Origin: a virus
Direction: 5' to 3' (one strand)
Length of the DNA stretch: 64,000 nucleotides
IMG/VR virus record: IMGVR_UViG_3300035661_000043
Span: 15,756-79,755 of that record
Shown: piece by piece, positions 3-62,667 of the stretch
How positions within the stretch are numbered: position 1 is the stretch's first letter
Layout of the letters: each line of letters opens with the position of its first letter
Notes under the pieces: model-generated
What the model saw: only the letters and a program-made list of their open reading frames with translations
What the model was told of the DNA's origin: nothing
Database searches by the model: none
Program-made: the position numbers and the translations under genes

Positions 3-2147
3 AATTTTTTCGGGTTCTAGATCAAACGATCTGAAGAGGAGAAACAGCTTCCTAAATCAGTTGTTGCTCCAAATCTAGCAGATGGTTCTATTGTTATTAA
101 TCAGAACTTGGGAACTGGTATTCTCGGAGACTCTTATACTCTTGCATTTGACCCAGACGGTCAGATCACAAATGAGATCGATCTCGTTCGTAGATATAGA
201 GAATTGTGCAGATATCCAGAAGTAGCAGAAGCTATTGAAGATATCGTTAACGAAGCAGTGATTATCGAAGGTGAAGATAAACCTGTTGAAATCAATCTTG
301 AGTATCTTAAGATCTCAGATTCAATCAAGAAAAAGATCACAGAAGAATTTGCCAAGATTCTTTCACTGATGAACTTCAATGAAGAAGGGTATGATCTATT
401 TGAAAGATGGTATGTGGATGGGAAGATCTTTTTCCATATATTACTGGATGAAAATCATTCAAATGGTATCAAAGAGCTAAGATTAATTGACCCACGTAAG
501 ATCAAGAAGATCAAGAATGTGATCAAAGAGAAATTAGCAAGTGGTGTAGAGATTGTCAGGGAAGTACAAGAATATTACATATACAATGACAAGGGTATTG
601 CAGGCGGCACTAGTCAGGGTGTAAGATTAAGTGTTGATTCTGTTGTGTACTGCCATTCAGGTCTGATTGATTCACAAACTGGATTAGTTCAATCATATTT
701 GCATAAAGCAATCAAACCTGCTAACCAATTAAAAATGTTGGAAGAAGCGGTTATTATCTACAGATATACTCGTGCACCAGAGCGTAGGGTATTCTATATT
801 GATGTTGGAAATTTACCAAAAGGTAAAGCTGAGCAATACGTCAGTGATATGATGAATAAGTTCAAGAACAAGTTATCATATGATGCTGTTACTGGGGAAT
901 TGGCAGATTCTAAGAGACACTTGTGTTTGGATATGAGCACACAAGTACCATTGCTTGATGGCAGAACACTGTCTATTTCCGAGATTGCTGCAGAGATGGA
1001 TCAATCAGATAAACCTCTATGGGCATATTCATGTGATCCAGTGACTGGCAAATTTGTGCCGGGTAAAATTACCTGGGCCGGTGTATCTAGACCAAATGCA
1101 CAAGTCATGCGTATTACTCTTGATAATGGAAAAACCATTACTTGCACCCCAGATCACAAATTTCCAGTTTGGGACAAGGGATTCGTAAAAGCTGAAGATC
1201 TATATATTGGCGAATCAATGATCCCGCATTATACTCGTTGGAAGGAAATTGCTAAGGGTTCTTCCAAGAATTACGAACAAATTTTCGAGAATGATACTGG
1301 AGAATGGAAATTCACACATCAAGCAGTATCCGATTGGAAAGATTGTATTACATCGCGCCGTTCATCTACATCATGTGTTTCTTCTGATAACAGTGCAGAT
1401 AGACAAATTGATTCTCTAATGTTCCGTAACCATAAAATTGCAAAAATTGAGTGGTTAGAAGAAACAATGGACACTGGATGTCTGACTATTGACGGAGATG
1501 AAGAATTCCACAATTATCATACATTCGCTCTATCTGCCGGAATTTACACCCAGAACTAGATGATGGAAGATTTCTGGATGCCTAGGCGCGGAGATAAATC
1601 AACAGAAATCACGACACTTCCAGGGGGTCAGGGTCTCGGTCAGTTGGATGATTTGGATTATTTCAAGGATAAACTATATCGTTCTTTAAATGTACCTAAA
1701 TCTAGATTCGTTCCAGATAGTGGTTTCTCTATTGGTAGATCAGATACTATTTCTAGGGATGAAGTAAAATTTGCTAAATTTGTTGGCAAATTGCGCAACA
1801 AATTCGGAAATATCTTTTTAGATATATTGCGCGTTCAATTGATTTCTAAGGGTATTTTCTCTAGTAAAGATTGGGAACAATTTAAAGAGAAGATTAAAGT
1901 CATTTACGCTAAAGATAACTTCTTTGCCGAATTAAAAGAAAATGAAGTTCTTACTACTAGACTTTAGACTGCATTGCAATTGGATCCATTTGTCGGCAAA
2001 TATGTAAGCAAAGAATACATCCAAAGAAAAGTACTAAGATTCACAGATGATGAAATAAAAGAAATAAATACACAAATGGAAGCCGAGATCAAATCTGGTG
2101 ATATTACTGACCCAGTAGCAATGATGCAAGAACCACCTCAGGCATAA
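3..2147 (+). CDS. 20: Portal protein gp20 (5' end outside window) containing an intein; in-frame TAG read as Ser at 18, 1557, 1965
   Basis: gp20 motifs YLHKAIKPANQLKMLE, RAPERRVFYIDVGNLP, EDFWMPRR, LDPFVGKY lie in one frame across three TAGs; ends TAA 2145-2147. Confidence 0.95.
924..1556 (+). mobile_element. Mini-intein (211 aa) in gp20 with a degenerate endonuclease remnant
   Basis: Starts CLDMST (block A), contains TPDHKF (block B), ends HTFALSAGIYTQN; it interrupts KRHL|SMMEDFW; the +1 codon is TAG. Confidence 0.92.
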
Positions 2148-7623: not shown

Positions 7624-9090
7624 TCATGTTAACACATACTTTAAATTGCCGCAATCATAGTATATCTTGAACTTATTATTAAACATATTCTGTTCTTCTG
7701 TTAAGTTTTGATCAAAAGTCTTTAACAGTGTCGATAATTTGGATTTTTGTGTTTTGTATCTGGAATATGTTCTTGATCCATTTGTCCAAACATACCCAGG
7801 ATCTGTCAATTTCAAGAATGTAAACTATGATTTTGCATATACATTCCCATTTGAAATTCTTCTGTCAGCATATGTAATAATAGAACCAGTATAGTTCTTT
7901 CTGAAATAATTTAGAATCTTCTGAAATCCACCTACAACAGTAGTATTCAATTTAGATGCAAATCTGATGATTTCCCACTCATAGTTCTTTTCAAATCTTG
8001 GTTTACCAAAAGTACAAACTGCTACTAATTCATTCTCATAATATAGACCGAGATTGACTTTAGACACTGCATATCCACTTAGATGTGTTGTTTCCAAGAA
8101 TTGCTTTGTATTTTTAGAATCAACTATTCTAAGATCACATTTTCTAGCATATATCTTTTCTGTGATGCCTAATTTAGAACGAATAATAGATTTGACTAAT
8201 TCCGGAGATTCTTTCCATTCTTCTTCTGTGATTCTTATAACAAGATTACCCGTTTTTTCTGCATCAATCACTTTCTTTTGATGTATTTTCTTTTCGGCAG
8301 ATGAGAGTTTTCTGTCTGATCCGTGAAAATATAGACCATCATATTCTATACCAAAATTCTTTTCTGGTACAAATATGTCTATCTCTCTTTTATCTGTGTC
8401 AAAAATTTTGACATTCTGTTGAACGTCAAATCCAATCGATTTGACGAATTCTGCAATTTGTTTTTGACCAGAAGAAATAGAATAGCCTACTTTCACTGGT
8501 ATTTCATGTAACGCAATATATTTTGCTATAGTTCCTTTGTCAATATCAAACTCCGATGATATATCCATATACGTCTTGTCTAATGTGATATACTGATTAT
8601 ATAGCCAATCTCTGTCTGAAACCATGGTTTCAATTCTTTTCTACAACTTAGATTTAGTCCATACGTGCTTTATATCTTCTCTTTGTGAGTTATATTCTAC
8701 CCCATATTTCTTAATCATTGTTTCTTTTCTGGATTGTTTTCTTTTTTCAAGAATTTCTGGATCTGAATCACGAGTTTTTACAGCAAGACGGATTCTTTCA
8801 ACATCTTTAGAAGAACATTTTTTTGAACAATAATCTGAAATTCCTTTGTCTCCAAATACGAACATTCTTCTATTTGTTTTACACACCGCACAAACCCCAG
8901 GTTCACACAATTGCATTTTGGCTAGTGTGAACAATTCTCTGACAGAATAGCCATCTCGTTCATATATATCTAAAATAGCTAGAATATGTGAAGTGTATTC
9001 AAATTTTGCACGAAGAAATTTGTAATTGCACCTCTTGCTAGGTATTTTTCCATTTACTTCTAGTGCTTCTATTATCTCATCAAACCACAT
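7624..9090 (-). CDS. Second Hef-like putative homing endonuclease (TAG at 8641 and 7825)
   Basis: YCSKKC, KKYGVEY, EIDIFVPEKNFGIEYDGLYFH, YDCGN; three track ORFs join in frame; AGGAG upstream of ATG 9090. Confidence 0.8.
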
Positions 9091-9398
9091 TTGGAAACTC
9101 CTATGTTCTATATTATATATTAATTTGATGATCCAGTGAAGTAAACGGAATGAATAATAGAAACTATTCATTACTTCAATGTGACTAATTTCTCACACAT
9201 AGACAAAGTTATGTTTGTCTGTGTCAGATCACTGCTAGACAAGATCGAAGCTGTAGGACAGTTAATGCAGGAGCCTACTGGTGTCTCCTTCGGTTTATGT
9301 TTCAATTCCTATTCGGACCCAAACCCTTAATTCACGGAGTGCGCGTATTTTTCTCACTTGGTACATAAATAGTACAACACACTTTCGGGGATATTCAA

Positions 9399-11935: not shown

Positions 11936-13483
11936 ATGAATGTAGATGTTGAATTTATCCCAAAGGATGAATAGAATATTCTTATTAGATGTTCTGATTT
12001 TGGTATATACCAAGAAATGTCTGAGTATTTCTCGTTCTTCGTTGAAGGCTACAAGTTTATGCCATCATATCGTAATGGTACATTCGATGGGAAAATTCGG
12101 ATCTTCGATGCTCGATATAAGAAGTTACCAAAAGGACTCTTAAAGATTGCAATAAAATTCTGTAAGGACAGAGATTATACATTCAGCATTGATCCAGAAT
12201 TAAATCCAAAGACTAACTTTAATGAAAAAGAAATTATAGATTGGATAGATTCAATTGATGTTACTACAAAAGGGAAACCAATTGCAGTAAGAGATTACCA
12301 GACACAAGCTATTCTTCAATCTTTGAGATATTATCGTAATCTGCTAATCAGTCCTACTAGTTCCGGAAAGTCATTAATTCTGTATTACAAACTGAGATAT
12401 CACATTGATATACTACATCAGAATGTAGTTGTAATTGTTCCAACAACTCAGTTAGTTGAGCAACTATATTCTGATTTCAAGGATTATAGTGAAACAAATG
12501 GGTGGGATGTTGACGAATATACTCAAATGCTTTACTCCGGGAAAGAGAAGTTATTTACTAAGCAATTAATGATTTCTACTTGGCAATCACTTGCTGCTAT
12601 GTAGAAATTTCATCAAGATAAATTCAAGCATATCTGTGACACAACTGATGTTCTGTGTATGGATGAAGCACATACATATAAATCAGATGTAACTTTAGCA
12701 ACTGCTAATAAGTTTTATAGAGCAAAATGGAGAACTGGTACAACTGGCACACTAGATGACTCGAAAATCAATAAGTTACAGTTAATTGGTCTAATGTCAG
12801 AACCATATCAGGTAATTACCACTCGTGAATTGATGGATCAAAAATCAGTTGTAAATCTTGATATCAAAGTATGCAAAATCCATTACCCCGATGTGCTGAA
12901 ACAGCAATTGATTGGTATGGATTATAAAGCAGAGATTAATTATCTAGTAACATACGAGCCTAGGAATCGATTCATTGCAGATCTTGCCAAGAATACTAAA
13001 GGTGTTACTTTAGTTCTGTATACATATATTGAGAAACACGGTGCAGTATTAGACAAATTCATCCGTGAAATCTGTCCAGGAAGAACAGTGAGATTTATTC
13101 ACGGTGGTGTAGATATTGAAAATAGAGAAGAAGTAAGAAAAGTGGCAGAGACTGATGAAAATTGTATTATCATTGCTTCTTCTGCAATTTTCAGTACAGG
13201 TACTAATATCCCATCAATTGAGAATGTGATTTTTGCAATGCCCACGAAATCAACAATACGTGTGCGGCAATCGATTGGTAGAGGTTTAAGACTAAGAGAA
13301 GGAAAGAATAAATGCACATTGTTTGATGTGGCAGATGATCTCAGTTTCAAGTCGTACACCAACACAACGTTACGTCACATGTTTCATAGAATTGAAATTT
13401 ATGACAAGGAGCAATTTGACTACACAGTCCATAAGATTGATGTCAGTAAATTCATGTCTGACTCATCAATGTACACAGACTAA
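11936..13483 (+). CDS. uvsW: Helicase UvsW (TAG at 11972, 12602)
   Basis: FSFFVEGYKFMP, PTSSGKS, TWQS, DEAH, QSIGRGLR. Confidence 0.95.
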
Positions 13484-27059: not shown

Positions 27060-28502
27060 ATGCAAATTGAGTCAGTGATTATATCGAGTCTTTTGATTAG
27101 TGAGGACTACGCCAGAAAGGTAGTTCCTCACCTTGAAAAAGAATATTTCGCAGAAAGAGTTGATGCTCTCATTTACGATGAAATCAATACTTTCTTCTTG
27201 AAATTCAATGTGCTTCCTACAAAGGATGTACTGCGTGTGCAAATTACAGACAAGTCAGGTATTTCTAATTCTGATGCCGAAGACGCTCTTGCTAGGATAC
27301 AAGGTCTTTCAACCGAGCCGAAAAATCTAGATTGGCTAATAGAAAAGACTGAAGCATTCTGCAGAGATCGTGCTCTGTACAATGCTATCATGAAATCTAT
27401 CACCATCATCGACGGCAAAGATCAGAAACACTAGCGGGAAGCAATCCCTAGTATTCTTCAAGAAGCATTGGGGATTTCTTTTAACACTGCGGTTGGTCAC
27501 TAGTATCTTGATGATGCAGAAAAACGGTTTGATTTTTATACTCGTGTTGAATCTAAGATCGTCATGGATATTGAGATGTTCAATAAGATCACAAATGGCG
27601 GACTGAGCAGAAAAACTCTAAACATCTTATTAGCTCAATCTGGTGGTGGTAAATCATTGGTGATGTCGCACATGGCCGCAGGATGTTTACGAGATGGATT
27701 AAATGTACTCTATATCTCTATGGAGATGTCCGAAGAAAAGATCGCAGAACGTATCGATGCCAACTTACTTGATGTTGAAGTTGACAAGATCAAAGATATT
27801 GGTAAGGATATCTTCTGCACAAAAATTTCTAATCTTGCAGCTAAGACTCACGGAAGATTGTTTATCAAGGAGTATCCATCCGGTGCAGCACACACAGGTC
27901 ATTTCCGCGGTCTGTTAGAAGAACTGAAAACTAAGCAAGATTTTACCCCTGACATTATCTTCATTGATTACCTTGGCATCTGTGCTTCATCTAGGGTGAA
28001 GATGGGAGGGTCAGTTAACTCTTATGCTTACCTGAAATAGATAGCAGAAGAACTTCGTGCATTTGCCACAGAGAATGATGTGCCTGTCGTGACTGCAGGT
28101 CAAGTGAATCGTGGTGGGTACAACACCACAGATTTAGACATGACTGACACATCAGAAAGTTTAGGTATTGCTATGACCGCAGATGTGATGCTAGGTATTG
28201 TTCGAACTGAAGAACTCGATGATATGAATCAGTTGATGATGGTACAACTGAAAAATAGATATTAGGATCCCACTATCAATAAAAGATTTACTGTCGGTCT
28301 AAATCGCGCTAAGATGAAGTTATATGATCTGGAAGGGATGGCAAATTCCGGTTTCACACCAGATGCAAAAAATAAAACATATGCACCAAAAATTGCATAG
28401 AACACCAGAGAAGACACACCGGTATCAGAAGATGTTATAGAATAGTTACCGGTTGCAGGTATTAAATCTAAAACAGTCAACACACAAGGATTCGCGTTTT
28501 GA
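27060..28502 (+). CDS. 41: Replicative helicase gp41 (6 TAG)
   Basis: FCRDRALYNA, AQSGGGKS, SMEMSEEKIAERID, IDYLGIC, K*IAEELR, KNRY*DP. Confidence 0.95.
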
Positions 28503-30112
28503 ACTATGAAAAATATATTGATGATCACTTCCCATTTGAGAAGTTCAATCCAGGTCAGAAGGAAGCAATTGATTTCGCCGTAACAAATCTAGTTGCAGGA
28601 AAAAAGCATATTCTTATGGAACTGCCGACAGGTATAGGCAAGAGTGCTATTGCTACAACAGTACATAGAGTCATGCGTCAGATCAAAAAGGGTAAAGAGA
28701 ATTGGAAAACTGCAATTATTACTGCTACTAAAGGTCTACAAGAGCAGTATCTTCATGATGATAAGGAGATTTTCTCGTTAAAAGGTCGTCAGAACTACCC
28801 CTGTTCAAAGAATGCAGGACATTATGGCTCTGCAAAATGTAAACAAACTTGTAATGCGGGTGGCTGTGTTCCTGCTTCATCTTGTGATTACTTCAAGACC
28901 CGCGAGGTGTGGAGACTACACGCAGATCTTCGTTTGACTAACACATCTTTCCAAATTAAGGCACCAACAGTATTGATTGGTGATGACAAATCTCGTGCAT
29001 CACTCACTGTTATCGATGAATGTCATGAGATTGATGAGCAGTTGGTGAAACATGCTGCTTTGACTATAGATGTTGTCGATCTTACTTCTATCGAAAAGGT
29101 GGCCGGCAAGAACTTCACCGGTAGATTTGCTGCTTTCATCAATGACTTCTCCGAGTATGATGAGGGTTTCTATTTTGTCCCTGACGCGGATATCCAGAAA
29201 TCTGCCAAGGAACTCATTGATGCTATCGATACTAAGGCAGGTGAACTTGAGCAGAAAGCCAAGGAGTCTTCTCATGGGCATGGGTCTATTGCAGCGGTGA
29301 TAGATGATCTGAGAGGTTGGGCAACAGCTCTGCATTCTTTTGCATTTTCTGGTGGTGAGTGGATTATTGAAGAATATGCATATGCTCAGAAACTGGTCTT
29401 AACACCAGTATATACGCATCAGGTTGTGAACAAAGGTCTGTATGACAAATGTGATCAGTTTATTCATATGTCGGCTACGATCTGCGGATTTGATGAGTAT
29501 ATGAAAACGATGGGGATAGATAAGAAGGATGTCGCTGTGATCGATGCGGCAAATCCCATTCCAGTCGAACAAAGACCTGTGTATGCGATGAATGCTATCA
29601 AAGTGTCAGGATAGTTCGATAAAGAGAAATTGGCGACATTTGTTGACAAGATTATTGATCGACATGGGACTGATAATGGTGTTATTCATACCGTGTCTTT
29701 CCAACTTGCTAAAGACATCCGTGATAACTCTAAACACAAGAAACGTATGGTGATCAGTAACGACAGGGATGAAATTATCTCTCTTTTGAAAAAGAAGAAT
29801 ATGATTTTATTGAGTCCCAGTGTTGAGTCGGGATATGACTTCAAGGGAGATCTTGCTAGATGGCAAATTCTACCAAAGGTACCTTACGAGTATCTTGGTA
29901 ACCCAAGAATAAAATTGTTAATGAACAGGTAGAATAAATGGTACGCCAGACAAGCTATTCTTAGAATTGTTCAATCATCTGGTAGAGCTGTCAGAGGTAT
30001 GGATGATTATGCCACAACATACATCATCGATAGTAACTTTAGCACGTTGTGGCATGGAAATCAGGAATTATTCCCGAGTTGGTTCAAAGAAGCTGTCACT
30101 GTTGTAAAATAA
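28499..30112 (+). CDS. DinG/XPD-family helicase (TAG at 29612, 29930)
   Basis: PTGIGKS, KGRQNYPC with Cys cluster, DECH, MSAT, QSSGRAVR. Confidence 0.88.
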
Positions 30113-34280: not shown

Positions 34281-34356
34281 GGGACTATAGTTTAATGGTT
34301 AAAACATCACCCCTTTAAGGTGTAAGCTCTCGGTTCGAATCCGAGTAGTCCTACCA
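34281..34356 (+). tRNA. tRNA-Lys(TTT)
   Basis: GGGACTA/TAGTCCT, CACC-CCTTTAA-GGTG, ACCA. Confidence 0.8.
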
Positions 34357-37454: not shown

Positions 37455-37820
37455 TGTGCGATATCTCTATCGCACATCAGAATGACTGTATGGATCTTCG
37501 GATCTGTGAAGTTGAAAGAAATGTGTTCAGGAAGCGAGTTCGAGTCTCGCCAGCTCCACCAGAAGTATATCATCTGATGCATTCTGTGTGCTGTATATAT
37601 TGCAAGTATTCAGTATACTTCTGATGGGGCTGTATTGGTTTCGACTGGGCAATGAGTATGGAGATGGACAGTTTGGCAACGCAGAAGCCATTATGATTGG
37701 GTCTTCCCGGTTGAAGAAGCAAACAAAAGTAAAAGCAAACGCTGATACATTCCTGATGGCGGCTTGATCGCCCAGTGAGGATTCCTTGGGTGTTCCTTAT
37801 TACCAAAACACCCATCCTAA
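37455..37820 (+). ncRNA. ssrA: Circularly permuted two-piece tmRNA; tag ANADTFLMAA (outer ends approximate)
   Basis: T arm plus CAGCTCCACCA ends at 37561, before GGGGCTGTATTGGTTTCGAC at 37626; G3-U70 pair; tag frame 37735-37767. Confidence 0.9.
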
Positions 37821-38877: not shown

Positions 38878-39141
38878 GCAAATTTAGCTCAATGGTTAGA
38901 GCAGCGGACTCATGAAAAATTGTGCACCTAGGTAGGGATGCTTAGTGTGAATGTTGTCAAATTCGAAGAAACCTAAGTCAGAAATGATATGGTAACCTCG
39001 AGCCAAGCCTGAGAAATTAGGTGCTGTGTAGAGACTAGACGGCAACCATCTAGAACAGATGAAGGTATAGTCCAGGGAGTGGCGAAAGTCACACAAACCA
39101 GAATCCGTTGGTTACAGGTTCGAGTCCTGTAATTTGCACCA
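38878..39141 (+). tRNA. tRNA(CAT), probably Ile2, interrupted by a group I intron
   Basis: Exon 1 38878-38913 ends CTCAT; exon 2 39102-39141 AATCCG..ACCA; the spliced product is a canonical cloverleaf. Confidence 0.92.
38914..39101 (+). mobile_element. Group I intron (188 nt), Azoarcus tRNA-Ile type
   Basis: GTCAAATTCG..AAACCTAAG, GAGCCAAGC, GTAGAGACTAGACGGC, ATAGTCCAGGGAGTGGCGAAAGTCAC, terminal G. Confidence 0.93.
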
Positions 39142-41764: not shown

Positions 41765-41854
41765 GGAAGTTTGGCAGAGTGGTTTATTGCCGCGGACTCT
41801 AAATCCGCTGAATCAGAGATGGTTCCACGAGTTCGAATCTCGTAACTTCCTCCA
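41765..41854 (+). tRNA. Amber-decoding tRNA with CUA anticodon and Ser-type body
   Basis: GGAAGTT/AACTTCC, GCGGA-CT-CTA-AA-TCCGC (anticodon 41799-41801), 6-bp variable stem with GAGA loop, perfect T arm, TCCA. Confidence 0.95.
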
Positions 41855-45798: not shown

Positions 45799-47352
45799 AT
45801 GAAAAAGACGATTGAACAAAAATACCGTAAGCTGGATGAAATTTCTCACGTACTTTTGAGACCTGGAAGATATCTAGGTAGTATTACTCCGCACACCGCT
45901 GATGCATGGACTGTGACTGAATCTGGTACTATGCAAAAGAGGAGTCTGACATGGACTCCTGCTTTGCTTAAGATCTTTGATGAGATCATTTCTAACTCTG
46001 TTGACTTTAGCAAGACAGAAGAAGGAAAGCATCTGGATACTATCAAGGTGGATTTGAACCGGATAACTGGTGAGATCACAGTATACGATAATGGCGGTAT
46101 CGCTGTGATCAAACACAGTGAATATGATCAGTATATCCCGGAGATGATCTTTGAATTGCGCTCTGGATCAAATTTCGATGATTCGGAAGATAGCATGGCA
46201 ACCGGGCAGAATGGAGAAGGCTCAGCCCTAACAGCTATTTTCTCCTCTGAGTTCGAAGTACAGACTGCAGATGGATCTAATCAATTCATCCAGACTCGCA
46301 CCGACAATTCAAGGAAGATTTCCGACCCTAAAGTCAAGACATCAGATAAACACTTCACGAAGATTCGATTCATTCCGGACTATGAAAAGTTCGGTCTTGA
46401 TGGTCTTGATACCGATAATGAAGCTAGATTGATTAAGCGTGTATATGATGTAGCTGGCTGCAACCCAAAACTGAATGTATATCTCAATGGGAAGCGGATC
46501 AAGATTGCCTCATTCTCTGACTACGTGAAATTGTATACATCTGATTTTGTGCACGAAGAAAACGATCACTGGCATGTTGCATTGGCTGCTTCGGAAGATG
46601 GATTCAATCATGTATCATTTGTGAATGGTACAGAAACTACCACCGGGGGGAATCATATCAGCTACATCGCAGATCAGATCACGAACAAGCTGCGCGACTT
46701 CTTCAAAAAGAAACACAAAGTAGATGTGAAGCCAGGAGATATTCGGAATCACATGCTCCTGTTTATTGATGCCGGTATTATCAGACCAAGATATTCAAGC
46801 CAGACTAAAGAAGATCTGATTACAGAATCAAAGAACTTTGGTACTAGTATTGAAATTTCAGATAAGTTCATCCAAAAGGTTATCAAATCAAATATCGTTC
46901 AGTCTGTATTGGATTGGGTAAATGCAAAAGCTGCAGCAGCTGAAGCAGCGGAACTTCGCAAGAAATCAAAGGACATTGACAAGGCGAACCTACGAAAGAT
47001 CAGCAAGTTTACTGATGCCACACAGAAAGAAAATCGTGATCAATGCATGATTTTCATTGCCGAGGGTGAATCTGCTGCAAGTTCTATTCTGTCTGCGCGT
47101 ACAGGCAATATCGGTTGTTACCCATTGAAGGGTAAGCCGATTAACGCTATGGCTGCTACAACTAAGGATCTTCTTGATAATAAAGAATTCACTGAGCTGA
47201 TGACCGTCACAGGTCTGAAAATTGGTGAGAAAGTTAAAATAGAAGTAGATTCACTATATGAAATCTATATTGATGATATCTCATATATTGTGTCTACAGA
47301 AGATATCATTATTCACAAAGATAAACAATATATTGTAAAAGATTTAATCTGA
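45799..47352 (+). CDS. 39: Type II topoisomerase large subunit gp39 (ends inside the TOPRIM domain)
   Basis: HVLLRPGRY, EIISNSVD, DNGG, GQNGEG, EGESA, PLKGK; lacks DxDxDG; ends TGA. Confidence 0.95.
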   Translation: MKKTIEQKYRKLDEISHVLLRPGRYLGSITPHTADAWTVTESGTMQKRSLTWTPALLKIFDEIISNSVDFSKTEEGKHLDTIKVDLNRITGEITVYDNGGIAVIKHSEYDQYIPEMIFELRSGSNFDDSEDSMATGQNGEGSALTAIFSSEFEVQTADGSNQFIQTRTDNSRKISDPKVKTSDKHFTKIRFIPDYEKFGLDGLDTDNEARLIKRVYDVAGCNPKLNVYLNGKRIKIASFSDYVKLYTSDFVHEENDHWHVALAASEDGFNHVSFVNGTETTTGGNHISYIADQITNKLRDFFKKKHKVDVKPGDIRNHMLLFIDAGIIRPRYSSQTKEDLITESKNFGTSIEISDKFIQKVIKSNIVQSVLDWVNAKAAAAEAAELRKKSKDIDKANLRKISKFTDATQKENRDQCMIFIAEGESAASSILSARTGNIGCYPLKGKPINAMAATTKDLLDNKEFTELMTVTGLKIGEKVKIEVDSLYEIYIDDISYIVSTEDIIIHKDKQYIVKDLI

Positions 47353-47400
47353 AGTCAGACAATTTGGCTATATGTTTGTCAGAAATCGAAAGGATTGGAA

Positions 47401-47964
47401 ATGGAAATTAAAGTAAAAAAAATTGATGTCAATCATCAAAACATGACAAAATATCTTGGTGATAATAATGTTATCAGAAAGACTAATCTTAGAAGCAGTC
47501 TGCGCTTCGGCAAATTGGTTATGTGCGCAGACGCAGACGCAGATGGTTAGCTTCGGCTAACTAATCTATAAACTAATTTAAGAAAGAATATTGGCTCACA
47601 TATTTGTGGCTTAATTATGGCAGGGCTGAAGAAATTTTGGCCCGAATTATTTTCTCTAGGTGCAGTATATCGATTCCAGACACCGATTATGAAAGTTATG
47701 ATCGGCAAGGATGAAAAATATTTCTATTCACTTGATGAATTCTCTGTTTGGGAAAAGACTAATACTAAATCTTTCAAGACTCGGTATCTGAAAGGTCTTG
47801 GCTCTTCTACCGCGGAAGACTTCCGAGGTTATTTTGCTAACATGGATAACAATCTAGTGCAGATTACGTTACAATCTACTGATGATCTAGACATTGTTGA
47901 TCTGGTATTTGGTAAGGAAACAGGAGCAGCTGATGCTCGTAAAGTCTGGTTGGATTTGGAGTAA
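47401..47964 (+). CDS. 60: Topoisomerase small subunit gp60 with a 48-nt bypassed coding gap (47548-47595)
   Basis: MEIKVKKID..MTKY..NNV..RSS..CADADADG|gap containing TAG and TAA|SHICGL..RYLKGLGS. Confidence 0.9.
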
Positions 47965-47967
47965 TCT

Positions 47968-49278
47968 ATGGCAAAAATGAATATTAAAGACTTTTTCGGC
48001 ACTGCCGTGCGCGACTACTCCATTTATGCATGCGAACGTGCTATTCCATCTGGCTGTGATGGTCTCAAGCCAAGTCAGCGCAAGGTGTTGTATGGAATGA
48101 CAAAAGAATTTCCTACTCAGGAAGTGAAAGTTTCCATCTGCGCGGCTACTATCCAAGCAGTGACCGCATATCATCATGGTTCTTTGGAAGCAGTAGTCAC
48201 AGGAATGGCACAGAACTTTGTTGGTTCTAATAATGTCCCATTGTTGGAAGGCATCGGACAGTTTGGTTCTCGAATCACATCTACACCCGCAGCATCTCGG
48301 TACATTTTTGCTAAGTTGTCTCAGCAAGCGAAACAGCTGTTTAGGTCTGTAGATGACAATATTCTGGAATGGTTGGATGACGATGGTCAGAAAATTGAGC
48401 CAAAGTTCTACCTCCCAGTTCTACCTCTGGTTCTCATCAATGGTGCAGAAGGCATGGGTACTGGTTTCTCCACTTACATTATGGGGTATAAACCGGATGA
48501 TCTAAAGAAACGCACACTGGAAATCCTCAACGGAAGCAAGAAAAAGACTTCATTGACTCCTTGGTATCGAGGGTTCAGTGGCACTATTTCTAAGAATCTT
48601 GAAGGTCAGACTGTAACTACAGGTAAACTAGAAGTTGTTAATACTACAACGATCAAGATCACAGAGTTGCCAATCGGGATGTTTACGATGAAATACCGTG
48701 ATCATCTGAACTCAATGGAAGACAAAGATCTGATCAAGTCATATGATGACAATTCGAATGAGCAGAAAATTGAGTTCATTGTGAAGGTATCACGTGAATT
48801 TTCTGCTAAGTCTGAAGAAGAACTCATCAAGGCTTTCAAACTACAGAACCGTAATTCTGAGACTATTACCGTTTGGGATGAGAAGGAAAAGATTCGTAGG
48901 TTTGATTCAGCTGAGGACTTGTTGGAATGGTTTGTTGCATTCCGATTGATCAAGTACGAAGATCGCCGGGTGTACATGATTTCTGCGGCAGAAGAACGTG
49001 TCAAGAAAATGACAGAACAAATGCGGTTCATCCGATTGTATCTGAAACGTTCTTCTGTTTGGTCAAAGACTAAGATTGATCTGATTCGGCAAGAATTGAC
49101 TGACGAACTGTTTGAATCTATAGATGAATTACTTGCTATCCGTGTGTCTCGTCTTACCGGCGATGCGATCGAAGAACTTGAGCAGAAGATCAAAAATGAA
49201 CTTGACACGATCACTGCGTTGAAGAATACATCTGCTAAAGATTTGTATGTGGAAGATTTGAACAGCCTAAAGGTGTAA
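47968..49278 (+). CDS. 52: Topoisomerase medium subunit gp52
   Basis: RAIP..DGLKPSQRK, YHHG, GQFGSR, ASRYI. Confidence 0.95.
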   Translation: MAKMNIKDFFGTAVRDYSIYACERAIPSGCDGLKPSQRKVLYGMTKEFPTQEVKVSICAATIQAVTAYHHGSLEAVVTGMAQNFVGSNNVPLLEGIGQFGSRITSTPAASRYIFAKLSQQAKQLFRSVDDNILEWLDDDGQKIEPKFYLPVLPLVLINGAEGMGTGFSTYIMGYKPDDLKKRTLEILNGSKKKTSLTPWYRGFSGTISKNLEGQTVTTGKLEVVNTTTIKITELPIGMFTMKYRDHLNSMEDKDLIKSYDDNSNEQKIEFIVKVSREFSAKSEEELIKAFKLQNRNSETITVWDEKEKIRRFDSAEDLLEWFVAFRLIKYEDRRVYMISAAEERVKKMTEQMRFIRLYLKRSSVWSKTKIDLIRQELTDELFESIDELLAIRVSRLTGDAIEELEQKIKNELDTITALKNTSAKDLYVEDLNSLKV

Positions 49279-59344: not shown

Positions 59345-59617
59345 ATGGCAAAACGGCTGACAGTAAATCACTTCTCCCAGGAAGTACTAGTGCTCTCTGA
59401 TTTGGTATTGCAACGGTTTCAAGTGCAAGAAGATACAAAGAACTTAAGTTATGAGGTTCTCTGTGATCTTACTTCTGGATATGTTCAGTTATTCTTGACA
59501 GATCTTGCTTTCCAGGGAGAGTCTAGGTCTGTAATGTTGAAAAAGATCAAAGATCGTTGCCATACTGTTTGTGTACAGATCAATGCTATCAAATCTGGTA
59601 CCACTGTTTCCCTTTAA
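59345..59617 (+). CDS. Hypothetical protein
   Basis: Follows a promoter, precedes rIIA. Confidence 0.55.
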   Translation: MAKRLTVNHFSQEVLVLSDLVLQRFQVQEDTKNLSYEVLCDLTSGYVQLFLTDLAFQGESRSVMLKKIKDRCHTVCVQINAIKSGTTVSL

Positions 59618-59637
59618 ACACAACTGAATTCCATATT

Positions 59638-61662
59638 ATGATTATTACTGATCAAGTAGAAAATCGACCAACTCTGAGTTCTGCTATTACTGATACTAAT
59701 CAGTTCACTATCAAGAACTCGGCAAAAGCTTTCCATATTCTTTCTACATCTCTCTACTCCGATACCAAGCTTGCAATTCTCCGTGAACTTGGGTGTAATG
59801 CTCGAGACAGCCACGTAGAAGCAGGTCAGACTAAACCCTGGCGTTTGCACTTGCCGACATTGGTAAATCCAATGCTAGAGATTGAAGACTATGGTGTTGG
59901 ATTGGATCATGATCAGGTCATGAACATGTTCACCACATTCTTTGAATCAACAAAGACTGATTCTAATGAATTCGTTGGTGCTCTGGGTCTCGGTTCGAAG
60001 TCTCCATTTAGCTACACAGATAACTTTACTGTGATTACCATTAAGAATGGTGTGCGGAATGTCTATTCTGCTTATAAGACTGATGCTGGTGTTCCGGCTA
60101 TCGCTCGGATGCACACAGAACAGACTGATGCTGGCAATGGTGTGCTGATTCAGATTGCAGCAAAGACTCAGGATTTCAACGACTTTGAGCAGAAAGCACG
60201 ACAAGCACTTGCTTTCTTTGATCAATTGCCCACGTGCAATAAAAATCTTGCTAAGGCAATGCTAAAACCTTTCGCACCATTCGGTACTGATCTTGGTGCA
60301 GAACAAGCTACGGGTTATACCTCTCCATCTGTAGTGATGGGTGGCATTGCTTATAGGATCGAATCTAGTCGTAAAGAGTTTCAACAATACGGCACTCTGC
60401 TATCGCATAAGATTATCCTCCGCGCAAACATCGGTGATGTTGAGATGACTCCTTCTCGAGAGGGATTGACTTACAATAAGCAGACAACTGATTGGATTGT
60501 CTCTAGGTTGGAAGATCTCACGCATAAAATTCAGATTGAACTTGAGAAGAAAGTAGCCGAGTATACTTCAAAGTGGGAATTGGCTAAGTTTTTGGTCGGG
60601 CAAAATGAAAATTATTCACTGTACAGCGCTGCAGTGGAGCGTCTCATCAAAATTCATTTCCCAGATGGGATCCCAAAACTTACCTTTGAAGAAGCTGAAC
60701 TTCGACAGTACGATATTCGAATGTCCAAGTATGTACAGAAGGTTAGCGGTTATGGAAAGACTAAACCAAATCTTCAACCCACTGCATTCGGATTGTCGGC
60801 ATCCGACATGTCACAGAGTAGTTACAGGTTTCGTGGTAAAAGATACAATTTCATGTTCGACGATTCCAAAGTCCGAGTGATGGATATGCTCAACTGTAAT
60901 ATTGATGGGGATGTTTATCTGTTCCAGAGTAAAAATCCAGCAGCAGAAGAGTTCATCAAGAAGAAACTTAGTGAAACTGAATTTAGTCTGATGTATACTT
61001 CCGCACATGTGAATAAGGTAGCATCTCAGAAACGTGAGAAGATTGACTTCTATAAGTTTGATGTTGTAGAGATCGGTGGTTACCACACCCGTAGGAAAAT
61101 ATTGAAGGCAATTCGTTGCTCTGGGTCAGTTCCTGCAGCTGCGATGTTTTGGGTCCAGATGAGAGGATCAAATATTGATGCAGATGTGTTGCTTGGTACA
61201 AATCTTCTCAATCAAGATTTGATTCAGTTTATCGAGAAACACCCCAATAAGGTAGTTGGATTCTCAAAGACATCGAAGTCCCCAAAGGGGAAGTTGATCG
61301 ATTTGACTAAACATCTTCAGGGTGTATTCGATAAAGAGGTTGCTCGTATCAAGACTCCAGAAGGATTGGAAGAGGCTGTTATTCAACAATGGTCGAAGTT
61401 CGGATATGACAACATCCCAGATCTTTCCGATGCAGATATTGCTCTTTTGGATGACAAGACTCTAGCCAAAATGGCTACCATCAAAAAATCTAAGTCAGAG
61501 ACGTTCCTATTCCTCTCTAGAATTAAAAATCTCGTGCCAACATTCGAGGTGAAACACACCGAGATTTTTTCCCACCTTCAAAAGCATTATTCTGTCATCA
61601 ACTTCAACTCTGATTACAAATATAAAGTAGCGTTGATGAACTTCATCTTCAACAGCAAGTAA
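59638..61662 (+). CDS. rIIA: rIIA protein
   Basis: LYSD..AILREL..NARDSH, DYGVG, STK, GALGLGSKSPFSYTD, PSREGL. Confidence 0.93.
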   Translation: MIITDQVENRPTLSSAITDTNQFTIKNSAKAFHILSTSLYSDTKLAILRELGCNARDSHVEAGQTKPWRLHLPTLVNPMLEIEDYGVGLDHDQVMNMFTTFFESTKTDSNEFVGALGLGSKSPFSYTDNFTVITIKNGVRNVYSAYKTDAGVPAIARMHTEQTDAGNGVLIQIAAKTQDFNDFEQKARQALAFFDQLPTCNKNLAKAMLKPFAPFGTDLGAEQATGYTSPSVVMGGIAYRIESSRKEFQQYGTLLSHKIILRANIGDVEMTPSREGLTYNKQTTDWIVSRLEDLTHKIQIELEKKVAEYTSKWELAKFLVGQNENYSLYSAAVERLIKIHFPDGIPKLTFEEAELRQYDIRMSKYVQKVSGYGKTKPNLQPTAFGLSASDMSQSSYRFRGKRYNFMFDDSKVRVMDMLNCNIDGDVYLFQSKNPAAEEFIKKKLSETEFSLMYTSAHVNKVASQKREKIDFYKFDVVEIGGYHTRRKILKAIRCSGSVPAAAMFWVQMRGSNIDADVLLGTNLLNQDLIQFIEKHPNKVVGFSKTSKSPKGKLIDLTKHLQGVFDKEVARIKTPEGLEEAVIQQWSKFGYDNIPDLSDADIALLDDKTLAKMATIKKSKSETFLFLSRIKNLVPTFEVKHTEIFSHLQKHYSVINFNSDYKYKVALMNFIFNSK

Positions 61663-61713
61663 TTTCTACTGGTGTATAATACATATATCAACACAACCAA
61701 GAAAGGTAACATC

Positions 61714-62667
61714 ATGATCCCATTTATTCTCCAAGGCAGCAATATTGTTCTTTACGTCAATGGTCAACCAGTAATTGTTGACACGACACATGTCAATTAC
61801 AAAGCAGTCAAAGAAGCAATTGTCGCCCAAGACTGGGAAACAGTAAAAGAAATGGCTACAGTGAAAGCCGCTGTGGCAAAAGCATCGAATGGCCGAGTAT
61901 CGGTATCCGAAGATCAAGTCATGTTCGATGGTGTTGTAGTACATAATGCACTGTCGCGACGCATGATTCAGATGTTTGCTGAGGGGTTCCCTATCGTGCA
62001 CTTCTGTAAGTTCATGGAAAACTTGGATGCAAATCCTTCCTTCCGTGCTCGCAATGAACTGTATGGCTTCTTGGAAGCATGCAATCTACCCATCACGGAT
62101 GATGGTTGCTTCTTGGCATATAAGAAGATCAAGTCTGACTGGACTGATTGCTACACAGGCAAGATTGATAACAGCATCGGTTCTAAACCCACTATGCCAC
62201 GTCGAGATGTGAACGAAGATCCTAATCAGACTTGCTCTGCTGGTCTACATGTATGTTCATATTCTTACTTGGAGTCTTACGGTGGAGATCGTATTGTAGC
62301 AGTCAAGGTAAATCCTGCTGATGTAGTAGCAGTGCCGACTGACTACTACGACACAAAGATGCGTGTGTGCCAGTATGAAGTAGTGGAAGAACTGCCATTT
62401 GAAGCGGCACAAAAAGATGATGTACTGAGTGCAGGACCTGTTGTCCGTACAGGTTACATTCAGCCCACCCCTCGTAAGATTTCTTACATGGTGGAAGATG
62501 TTCTGGAATATATGACACCTGATCAATTTGAGAAGTTGGTGAACCATCTCGAATGTGATGAGTCAGGTGCCGAACTCGATATCGAGTACTACAACTATTT
62601 GGATCTCATCGATACTGTCAAGATTAGCCGTATTCGTAAGGCAATCGATGCCCTAGGTCTGGTATAA
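61714..62667 (+). CDS. rIIB: rIIB protein
   Basis: NPS..ELYGFL, ITDDGCFLAYK, TCSAGLH, VNPADVVAVP.DY, KMRVC.Y. Confidence 0.93.
   Translation: MIPFILQGSNIVLYVNGQPVIVDTTHVNYKAVKEAIVAQDWETVKEMATVKAAVAKASNGRVSVSEDQVMFDGVVVHNALSRRMIQMFAEGFPIVHFCKFMENLDANPSFRARNELYGFLEACNLPITDDGCFLAYKKIKSDWTDCYTGKIDNSIGSKPTMPRRDVNEDPNQTCSAGLHVCSYSYLESYGGDRIVAVKVNPADVVAVPTDYYDTKMRVCQYEVVEELPFEAAQKDDVLSAGPVVRTGYIQPTPRKISYMVEDVLEYMTPDQFEKLVNHLECDESGAELDIEYYNYLDLIDTVKISRIRKAIDALGLV

Follow-up and report, generated by a model that had tools for sequence, protein, structure and literature searches.

Comparison with related genes makes it highly probable that one of the homing-endonuclease bypass cassettes of the T4 gene 60 family sits in the DNA topoisomerase II locus of an uncultured, T4-like phage, and that ribosomes hop at this place from a GGU to a GGC glycine codon. 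The phage, at 39% G+C, is from a microbial mat or sediment and is represented by a record that is about 45% complete; the whole 64,000-nt stretch of DNA that was analysed is referred to here as the window. A first-pass annotation had proposed a gene-60-type bypass from GGU to GGC, and the proposal gains comparative support from the glycine at which the insertion lies, the two cassette extensions, the hairpin, the gap and the out-of-frame gaps of sister cassettes. It had also presented the non-identical take-off and landing codons as a novelty and natural examples as very rare. Neither statement can be kept, since GGU/GGC pairs are already described for Stupor, Abraxas, S16, MGS1 and MGS12, among dozens of gene 60 cassette homologues (28 genomic and 13 metagenomic; Manning & Atkins, bioRxiv 10.1101/2022.08.31.505936). 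With the family and its GGU/GGC hops already known, what is new here is the window cassette as a member of that family, together with its setting in a phage that recodes UAG.

The coordinates of the locus are collected in Table 1. ORF1 matches phrog_543 over residues 2-485 (E = 1e-135; PHROG profiles, positions 21-507) and can be aligned with T4 gp39, with RsoM2USA_485 of Ralstonia phage RsoM2USA and with L003, a gene on an IMG/VR contig. From ATG 47401, ORF2 reads MEIKVKKIDVNHQNMTKYLGDNNVIRKTNLRSSLRFGKLVMCADADADG, after which TAG 47548 stands directly behind GGT 47545. This 49-aa 5' part matches phrog_19082 (E = 1.4e-6), a profile of 45 positions annotated as DNA topoisomerase II, which is presumably the gp60 N-terminus. 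The frame that follows GGC 47593 reads SHICGLIMAGLKKFWPEL... and ends with TAA 47962-47964; this 3' segment is 47% identical to RsoM2USA and matches phrog_543 positions 523-637 and phrog_7229 positions 50-163. The phrog_543 positions left between ORF1 (to 507) and the 3' segment (from 523) give room for the 16-aa homR. Between ORF1 and ORF2 the window has no endonuclease gene, only the spacer. Over 47392-48100 the window is matched without a single difference by Logan contigs from three runs, one of which belongs to a separate sediment study, and since the same sequence is present in the contigs of three runs, the cassette is real DNA and not an assembly artefact. In the output of gene callers, what is probably a two-chain enzyme subunit will appear as three fragments of 517, 49 and 115 aa.

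Table 1. Coordinates of the topoisomerase locus and of other features of the window.
Feature	Position	Strand	Remarks
T4-type portal gene with intein (Pfam Intein_splicing)	21-2147	+	intein ~924-1556; TAG 1557-1559
Endonuclease gene containing TAG	7627-9192	-	
UvsW helicase gene containing TAG	11975-13480		
Helicase gene (phrog_2488) containing TAG	28472-30109		
'Stop(tta)' tRNA, anticodon UUA	34281-34356	+	ARAGORN; anticodon stem with two mismatches
tRNA, anticodon CUA, long variable arm	41765-41854	+	ARAGORN; Rfam tRNA, 54 bits; outside the cassette
ORF1, gp39-like topoisomerase II large-subunit N-terminal part, 517 aa	45799-47352	+	stop TGA
ORF1 core	45799-47238	+	alignments
Cassette-derived C-terminal extension (CTE) of ORF1	47239-47349	+	alignments
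Spacer between ORF1 and ORF2, 48 nt	47353-47400	+	AGGA 6 nt 5' of ATG 47401
N-terminal extension (NTE) of ORF2, MEIKVKKIDVNHQNMTKYLGDNNVIRKTNLRSS	47401-47499	+	unique; presumed nascent-peptide signal
homR of ORF2, LRFGKLVMCADADADG, 16 aa	47500-47547	+	ends at the take-off codon; alignment with uninterrupted L003 and RsoM2USA_485
Take-off stem-loop, 8 pairs (one G-U)	47544-47563	+	U47544-C47551 / G47556-A47563, UUCG loop 47552-47555
Putative take-off codon GGT, Gly49 of ORF2 (T4 Gly46)	47545-47547	+	
UAG, A site at the proposed take-off	47548-47550	+	
[quoted passage not shown]
Putative landing codon GGC	47593-47595	+	decoding would resume at 47596
ORF2 3' segment, large-subunit C-terminal part, 122 aa + TAA	47596-47964	+	PHROG and RsoM2USA homology
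gp52-like topoisomerase II medium subunit	47968-49278	+	next gene downstream; phrog_551, E = 1e-132

Relatives in which the gene is uninterrupted define the insertion. Among 50,697 phage records, megablast and blastn gave no match to the locus, and tblastn alone returned relatives, all below 60% identity, the best being the uninterrupted 638-aa gene RsoM2USA_485 (47% identity). The closest relative is L003, with 74% amino acid identity in gp39, and because its gene is unsplit it is the window that carries an insertion, at 47239-47595. Relative to L003 and RsoM2USA, the window continues after ...TGLKIGEKVK with a 37-aa tail and a stop, followed by a new start, a 33-aa unique peptide, homR and the gap, and the parental MRFGKFVIVADSDADG is replaced by homR LRFGKLVMCADADADG. 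When 48 nt are removed, the junction reads DADADG-SHICGLI and aligns with zero indels to DSDADG-RHITGLI of L003 and DADVDG-LHISGLL of RsoM2USA, so that the TOPRIM motif is restored as had been noticed from the window itself. Cassettes of the family interrupt the gene at the invariant Gly of the TOPRIM motif DxDxDG or at the Asp before it (bioRxiv 10.1101/2022.08.31.505936); in the window it is the Gly, and alignment with T4 gene 60 places the T4 gp39/gp60 split in the same column.

All of the elements that the first-pass annotation had picked out at the junction are present, namely GGT 47545 followed by TAG within a UUCG hairpin, TAA 47569, GGC 47593 and SHICGL. Both GGT and TAG lie within the 5' arm of the take-off stem; the 25-nt hairpin folds with -9.6 kcal/mol (z = -4.7), none of 200 shuffles folding as well, and its motif TTAGCTTCGGCTAA occurs once in the window. 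Loops of UUCG, UUUG or GNRA type are characteristic of the family. As a candidate intrinsic terminator the hairpin was rejected, there being no T-run 3' of it. The 3' gap, from the hairpin to the landing codon, is 86% A+U and contains no GG, and hence no premature landing triplets, and a second zero-frame stop lies within the gap (TAA 47569-47571). The GGT and GGC at the two ends are matched Gly codons with a wobble difference only, and a further cognate GGC is found inside the hairpin at 47555-47557. A search of the 5-7 nt before the landing codon in the window found no canonical mini-SD (GAG, GGG, GGA or AGG); AAG 47584-47586 sits 6 nt 5' of the landing codon, at the position of the GAG in T4. 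Folding also gave a candidate 8-bp 5' stem (47498-47505/47525-47532) and candidate 3' hairpins (47593-47611 and 47623-47643), but such 5' stem-loops and 3' slippage-barrier hairpins are conserved in no other cassette, which agrees with the published view.

Five further topoisomerase cassettes, found by searching with the take-off hairpin as an exact 20-nt pattern, have a 20-mer identical to that of the window (L016, L017 (= L022), L028, L029 and L031), and the identity of the hairpin among them is thus partly a matter of ascertainment. Matched Gly codons, either identical or differing at the wobble position, are present in all five, and the predicted hops vary in length: GGT to GGC over 49 nt in L016, 43 nt in L017 and 48 nt in L029, and GGT to GGT over 43 nt in L031 and 42 nt in L028, whose contig ends 4 codons past the landing codon. 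A UAG after the take-off codon and a second zero-frame stop within the gap occur in 5/5, the 3' gaps are 70-91% A+U, and the four cassettes readable beyond the landing codon (not L028) resume at xHIxxLL. Their NTEs are 28-63% identical to that of the window. A mini-SD (AGGA or GAG) is present in L016, L017 and L031, and the canonical form is absent also from L028 and L029. A VSR-like endonuclease ORF stands between ORF1 and ORF2 in L017 (510 aa) and L031 (415 aa), and there is none in L028. The remaining 10 of the 15 metagenome matches to the hairpin pattern were discarded as unrelated contexts (L018-L021, L023, L025-L027, L030 and L024). In all of these other than L024, the 20-nt GGTTAGC-TTCG-GCTAAC hairpin comes right after an ORF ending ...RRAIIDG-TAG and has a T/A-rich tract 3' of it, and it looks like a terminator in another organism.

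The sister gaps bear directly on whether the 48 nt, being in frame, might simply be translated, with tRNA(CUA) acting at the UAG and a second suppressor at UAA 47569. The gap is a multiple of three in the window, L029 and L028, TAG is a sense codon in this phage, and ARAGORN reports a tRNA with anticodon UUA. However, 3/5 sister hops have lengths not divisible by three, which rules out read-through as the common mechanism: gaps of 43 and 49 nt with the same hairpin are not readable through. Translation of the gap would also give a product of 187 aa in place of the 171 aa predicted for bypass, with a 16-residue insertion that would fall inside the invariant DxDxDG-xH motif of the TOPRIM fold, and outside the hairpin the gap is only 42% identical between the window and L029, though the hop is 48 nt in both, with no sign of a conserved peptide. 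The second suppressor is questionable as well, since the UUA call has a poor anticodon stem and in another register is tRNA-Lys(UUU), no in-frame TAA was seen in conserved genes, and TAA ends 15/33 ORFs between 42 and 64 kb. We therefore regard read-through as very improbable, and the in-frame length of the hop in the window, judged from the sister sequences, is best seen as incidental.

A second set of comparisons concerns the 3' segment. In the comparison with L029, the window shows saturation at synonymous sites (pS ~0.75) and a pN of 0.18-0.27 in both ORF2 segments (3' segment: pN 0.18, pS 0.77), while the NTE has a dN/dS of ~0.1; both segments of ORF2 are under purifying selection. The low pN extends to the stretch of 20 codons that in L029 separates the landing codon from the first ATG 3' of it. 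Bypass could be dispensed with if the locus encoded a three-piece enzyme or were a decaying relic, ORF2 stopping at the UAG (or at the UAA after amber read-through) and the 3' segment being started separately, for example at AUG 47617. An in-frame AUG does lie 8 codons past the landing codon, split phage topoisomerases such as T4 gp39 and gp60 assemble from separate chains, and the mini-SD of the window is weak and its hairpin weaker than that of T4. Campylobacter phages, moreover, have kept a topoisomerase split without the bypass cassette (bioRxiv 10.1101/2022.08.31.505936). Nonetheless AUG 47617 is not conserved, L029 having Cys at this position and its first downstream Met at residue 21, and independent initiation of the 3' segment is disfavoured because of this. 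In the L029 comparison purifying selection still acts on the codons from the landing site to that Met, a start at 47617 would remove the conserved SHICGLI after DxDxDG, and no sister cassette has lost the hairpin or the duplicated Gly codons and their match. A decaying relic or an enzyme made without bypass is accordingly unlikely here, and bypass remains the reading we prefer.

The two cassette extensions also have counterparts in T4. The NTE is 38% identical to the N-terminus of T4 gp60 (BLASTP, E = 5e-8), and this, with the phrog_19082 match, bears out the resemblance to gp60 that the first-pass annotation had seen in the upstream peptide. The resemblance that it saw between the gp39 tail and that of T4 stands in part: the window CTE aligns with the CTEs of L028, L031, L017 and T4 in a five-sequence alignment, but pairwise BLASTP of the window and T4 CTEs gave no alignment. 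Residues reported as conserved in the nascent peptide are Y16 (invariant), Q19, V22, R24 (R/K), Y33 (Y/F) and T40 (T/S) (bioRxiv 10.1101/2022.08.31.505936). In the window NTE, T4 Y16, V22 and R24 are kept and Y33 is present as Phe, and the Tyr (Tyr18, the counterpart of Y16) is invariant in 7 cassettes. T4 Q19 is replaced by Asp and T4 T40 by Ala, both of them positions reported as conserved; the unsplit parental gene L003 also has Ala at the T40 position. A 49-aa ORF, P0007, is 86% identical and likewise ends ...ADADADG, and viral contigs searched with the NTE alignment or with P0007 yielded no related loci. The NTE strings of the window are absent from the supplementary files of Manning & Atkins, from which we conclude that the window holds an unreported member near clade 11, and one that breaks the rule that T40 is T or S.

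The similarity to T4 gene 60, a mobA cassette, extends over the whole arrangement. In both, the insertion is at the Gly of DxDxDG and the enzyme is split into gp39 plus a CTE and gp60 plus an NTE; the take-off Gly codon lies in a UUCG hairpin and has a UAG behind it, a matched Gly codon for landing stands beyond an A/U-rich 3' gap, the nascent peptides are homologous (Tyr16, Val22, Arg24), and a Gly triplet within the hairpin is, or in the window would be, ignored. They differ in that the predicted hop in the window is 48 nt, in frame and from GGU to GGC, whereas in T4 it is 50 nt and from GGA to GGA; the window has AAG where T4 has the GAG mini-SD; and the window has no mobA remnant. The phages themselves are about 30% identical in the enzyme core, and that of the window, unlike T4, decodes UAG as sense. 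The apical stem in the window has one G-C pair fewer, which is the configuration of the '-GC' T4 mutant, in which RF1 termination and read-through are both increased; in T4, structural work shows RF1 and read-through to be blocked by the hairpin in the A site together with the nascent peptide (PMC5462505). Together with the lack of a canonical mini-SD, the Asp and Ala at Q19 and T40, and candidate 5' and 3' stem-loops without conservation among cassettes, the missing G-C pair weakens the analogy with T4. The mini-SD is common but not universal in the family, one published case being without it, MGS2, and the shortest published gaps are 20 nt (bioRxiv 10.1101/2022.08.31.505936).

Comparison with T4 also bears on removal of the 48 nt from the RNA before translation, either as a mini-intron or by processing and ligation. 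In T4 the homologous gap is retained in mature mRNA, and ribosomes bypass it (PMC5462505; Manning & Atkins, bioRxiv 10.1101/2022.08.31.505936). Self-splicing introns are far larger than 48 nt, and Rfam finds no family at the gap, though the same search finds a group I intron elsewhere in the window (38902-39094). Among the sequencing runs listed for the stretch, none is of RNA. Removal at the RNA level is thus scarcely credible, and a gap that is present in the mRNA and crossed by ribosomes remains the favoured explanation.

The most likely scenario is that a cassette inserted into the gene for the topoisomerase II large subunit, giving rise to an ORF1 with the cassette tail and an ORF2 with the cassette peptide, and that in doing so it put a copy of its own in place of about 20 parental codons and introduced a gap of 45 nt that is not translatable, the endonuclease gene having been lost since. 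Ribosomes would then translate ORF2 up to Gly49 (GGU), where the NTE in the exit tunnel and the UUCG hairpin in the A site would stall them, burying the UAG so that both termination and decoding are blocked. Peptidyl-tRNA-Gly would unpair and stay in the P site as the ribosome slides 48 nt across the A/U-rich gap, passing over the cognate GGC in the hairpin (47555-47557) in the way that T4 ignores its GGG, and would re-pair at GGC 47593, with decoding restarting at UCA. The predicted product is a gp60 of 171 aa with an intact DxDxDG-SHI TOPRIM motif, and its junction peptide would be ...ADADADG-SHICGLIMAGLK (...ADADADG-SHICGLIM). The only Gly tRNA encoded in the window is tRNA-Gly(UCC), so the hopping tRNA would be the tRNA-Gly(GCC) of the host. 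By analogy with T4 we infer that bypass occurs, and likewise its efficiency and the identity of the tRNA.

Among published cassettes, a close one is nMG12 of clade 11 in the alignment file of Manning & Atkins, which is the same cassette as L031. It shares the GGTTAGC-TTCG-GCTAAC hairpin (identical to that of the window), the GGU-UAG take-off and the CTE/NTE architecture; cassettes related to nMG12 have a VSR-type endonuclease in place of MobA. The NTEs of the two are only 28% identical, however, and nMG12 hops 43 nt out of frame and possesses a T4-like GAG mini-SD and an endonuclease gene, neither of which the window has. Members without an endonuclease, as well as clades with GIY-YIG or VSR endonucleases, have been described (bioRxiv 10.1101/2022.08.31.505936). 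Salmonella phage S16 and the Acinetobacter phages Stupor and Abraxas have the same GGU take-off and GGC landing codons as the window, which can be read by one tRNA-Gly(GCC), but these are cultured Straboviridae with MobA-type elements and with CC-UUCG-GG or GNRA hairpin tips, and in Stupor and Abraxas the A site holds the rare codon AGG and not a stop. A more distant parallel is provided by the byps of Magnusiomyces capitatus mitochondria, where inserts of 27-55 nt are passed over by programmed bypassing, with take-off and landing codons that match fully or by wobble, and with a poorly decoded sense codon in the A site. The byps are nonetheless unrelated, being GC-cluster-like and present in many genes, without an NTE cassette or a homing endonuclease. 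With the window, the gene 60 bypass family reaches a further T4-like lineage that is uncultured and deeply diverged, and together with its sisters the window offers a set of natural variants in which the signals needed for bypass could be tested, with hops of 42-49 nt, one hairpin, several members without a mini-SD, and Ala at T40.

A more complex relationship is seen with the codon UAG, which this phage reads as sense in other genes. In-frame TAGs are present within the UvsW helicase, where the alignment to T4 UvsW passes straight over the TAG position, within the second helicase (phrog_2488) and within the T4-type portal, and further ORFs in 1-45 kb also have an in-frame TAG. The portal gene is interrupted by an intein, and its TAG encodes the +1 extein residue, where T4 gp20 has Ser329. 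The residue at +1 after an intein must be Ser, Thr or Cys, and this, with T4 Ser329, gives independent support for TAG as Ser. The tRNA with anticodon CUA is likely to be the decoder of UAG in this phage; its long variable arm, together with the portal site, makes Ser the most likely meaning, and the phage thus probably reads TAG as Ser. In contrast, the long ORFs between 45.8 and 53.3 kb, which include the topoisomerase genes, have no in-frame TAG, with two doubtful calls in the rest up to 64 kb, and TAG terminates 1/33 ORFs in the 42-64 kb region, where TAA terminates 15/33. One compartment of the genome contains in-frame TAGs, and another is largely without them. Conserved genes showed no recoded TAA; the tRNA that ARAGORN calls UUA may be a tRNA-Lys(UUU), since in an alternative register its loop is CCUUUAA, with C33, and it adjoins a tRNA-Lys(CUU).

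The sense reading of UAG in other genes also counts against bypass here, for a cognate tRNA could compete with the hop at GGU-UAG. One of two things would have to be true, or both: translation of the topoisomerase genes precedes the action of the suppressor, or the UAG is shielded by the hairpin. We tentatively suggest, as a possibility that is itself rather doubtful, that bypass here out-competes the cognate tRNA(CUA) and not a release factor, and that topoisomerase output falls as the suppressor tRNA accumulates, which would amount to a temporal shut-off. Were this the case, ribosomes reading through would stop 7 codons on, at UAA 47569, and nature would have provided in this locus a test of what licenses take-off, the A-site hairpin or the stop codon. 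With its take-off UAG in a UAG-reassigning genome, the cassette is in any event a natural experiment on competition between a tRNA and take-off, and recoded hosts are not discussed by Manning & Atkins (bioRxiv 10.1101/2022.08.31.505936).

Among various other features of the window, we note that the VSR-like endonuclease of the L017 cassette has a free-standing homologue at 7627-9192 (-), with 35% identity over 279 aa (E = 1e-37), so that the family of the lost cassette endonuclease is present elsewhere in the genome; this gene itself holds two in-frame TAGs. In the tRNA cluster, Rfam reports a permuted tmRNA at 37502-37767 (+; 94.7 bits) as well as the group I intron at 38902-39094 (+; 66.4 bits). 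Two adjacent ORFs in the same frame on the + strand, at 59557-61662 (701 aa) and 61672-62667 (331 aa), have no Pfam match, and we take their sizes and their place near the topoisomerase genes to recall T4 rIIA and rIIB.
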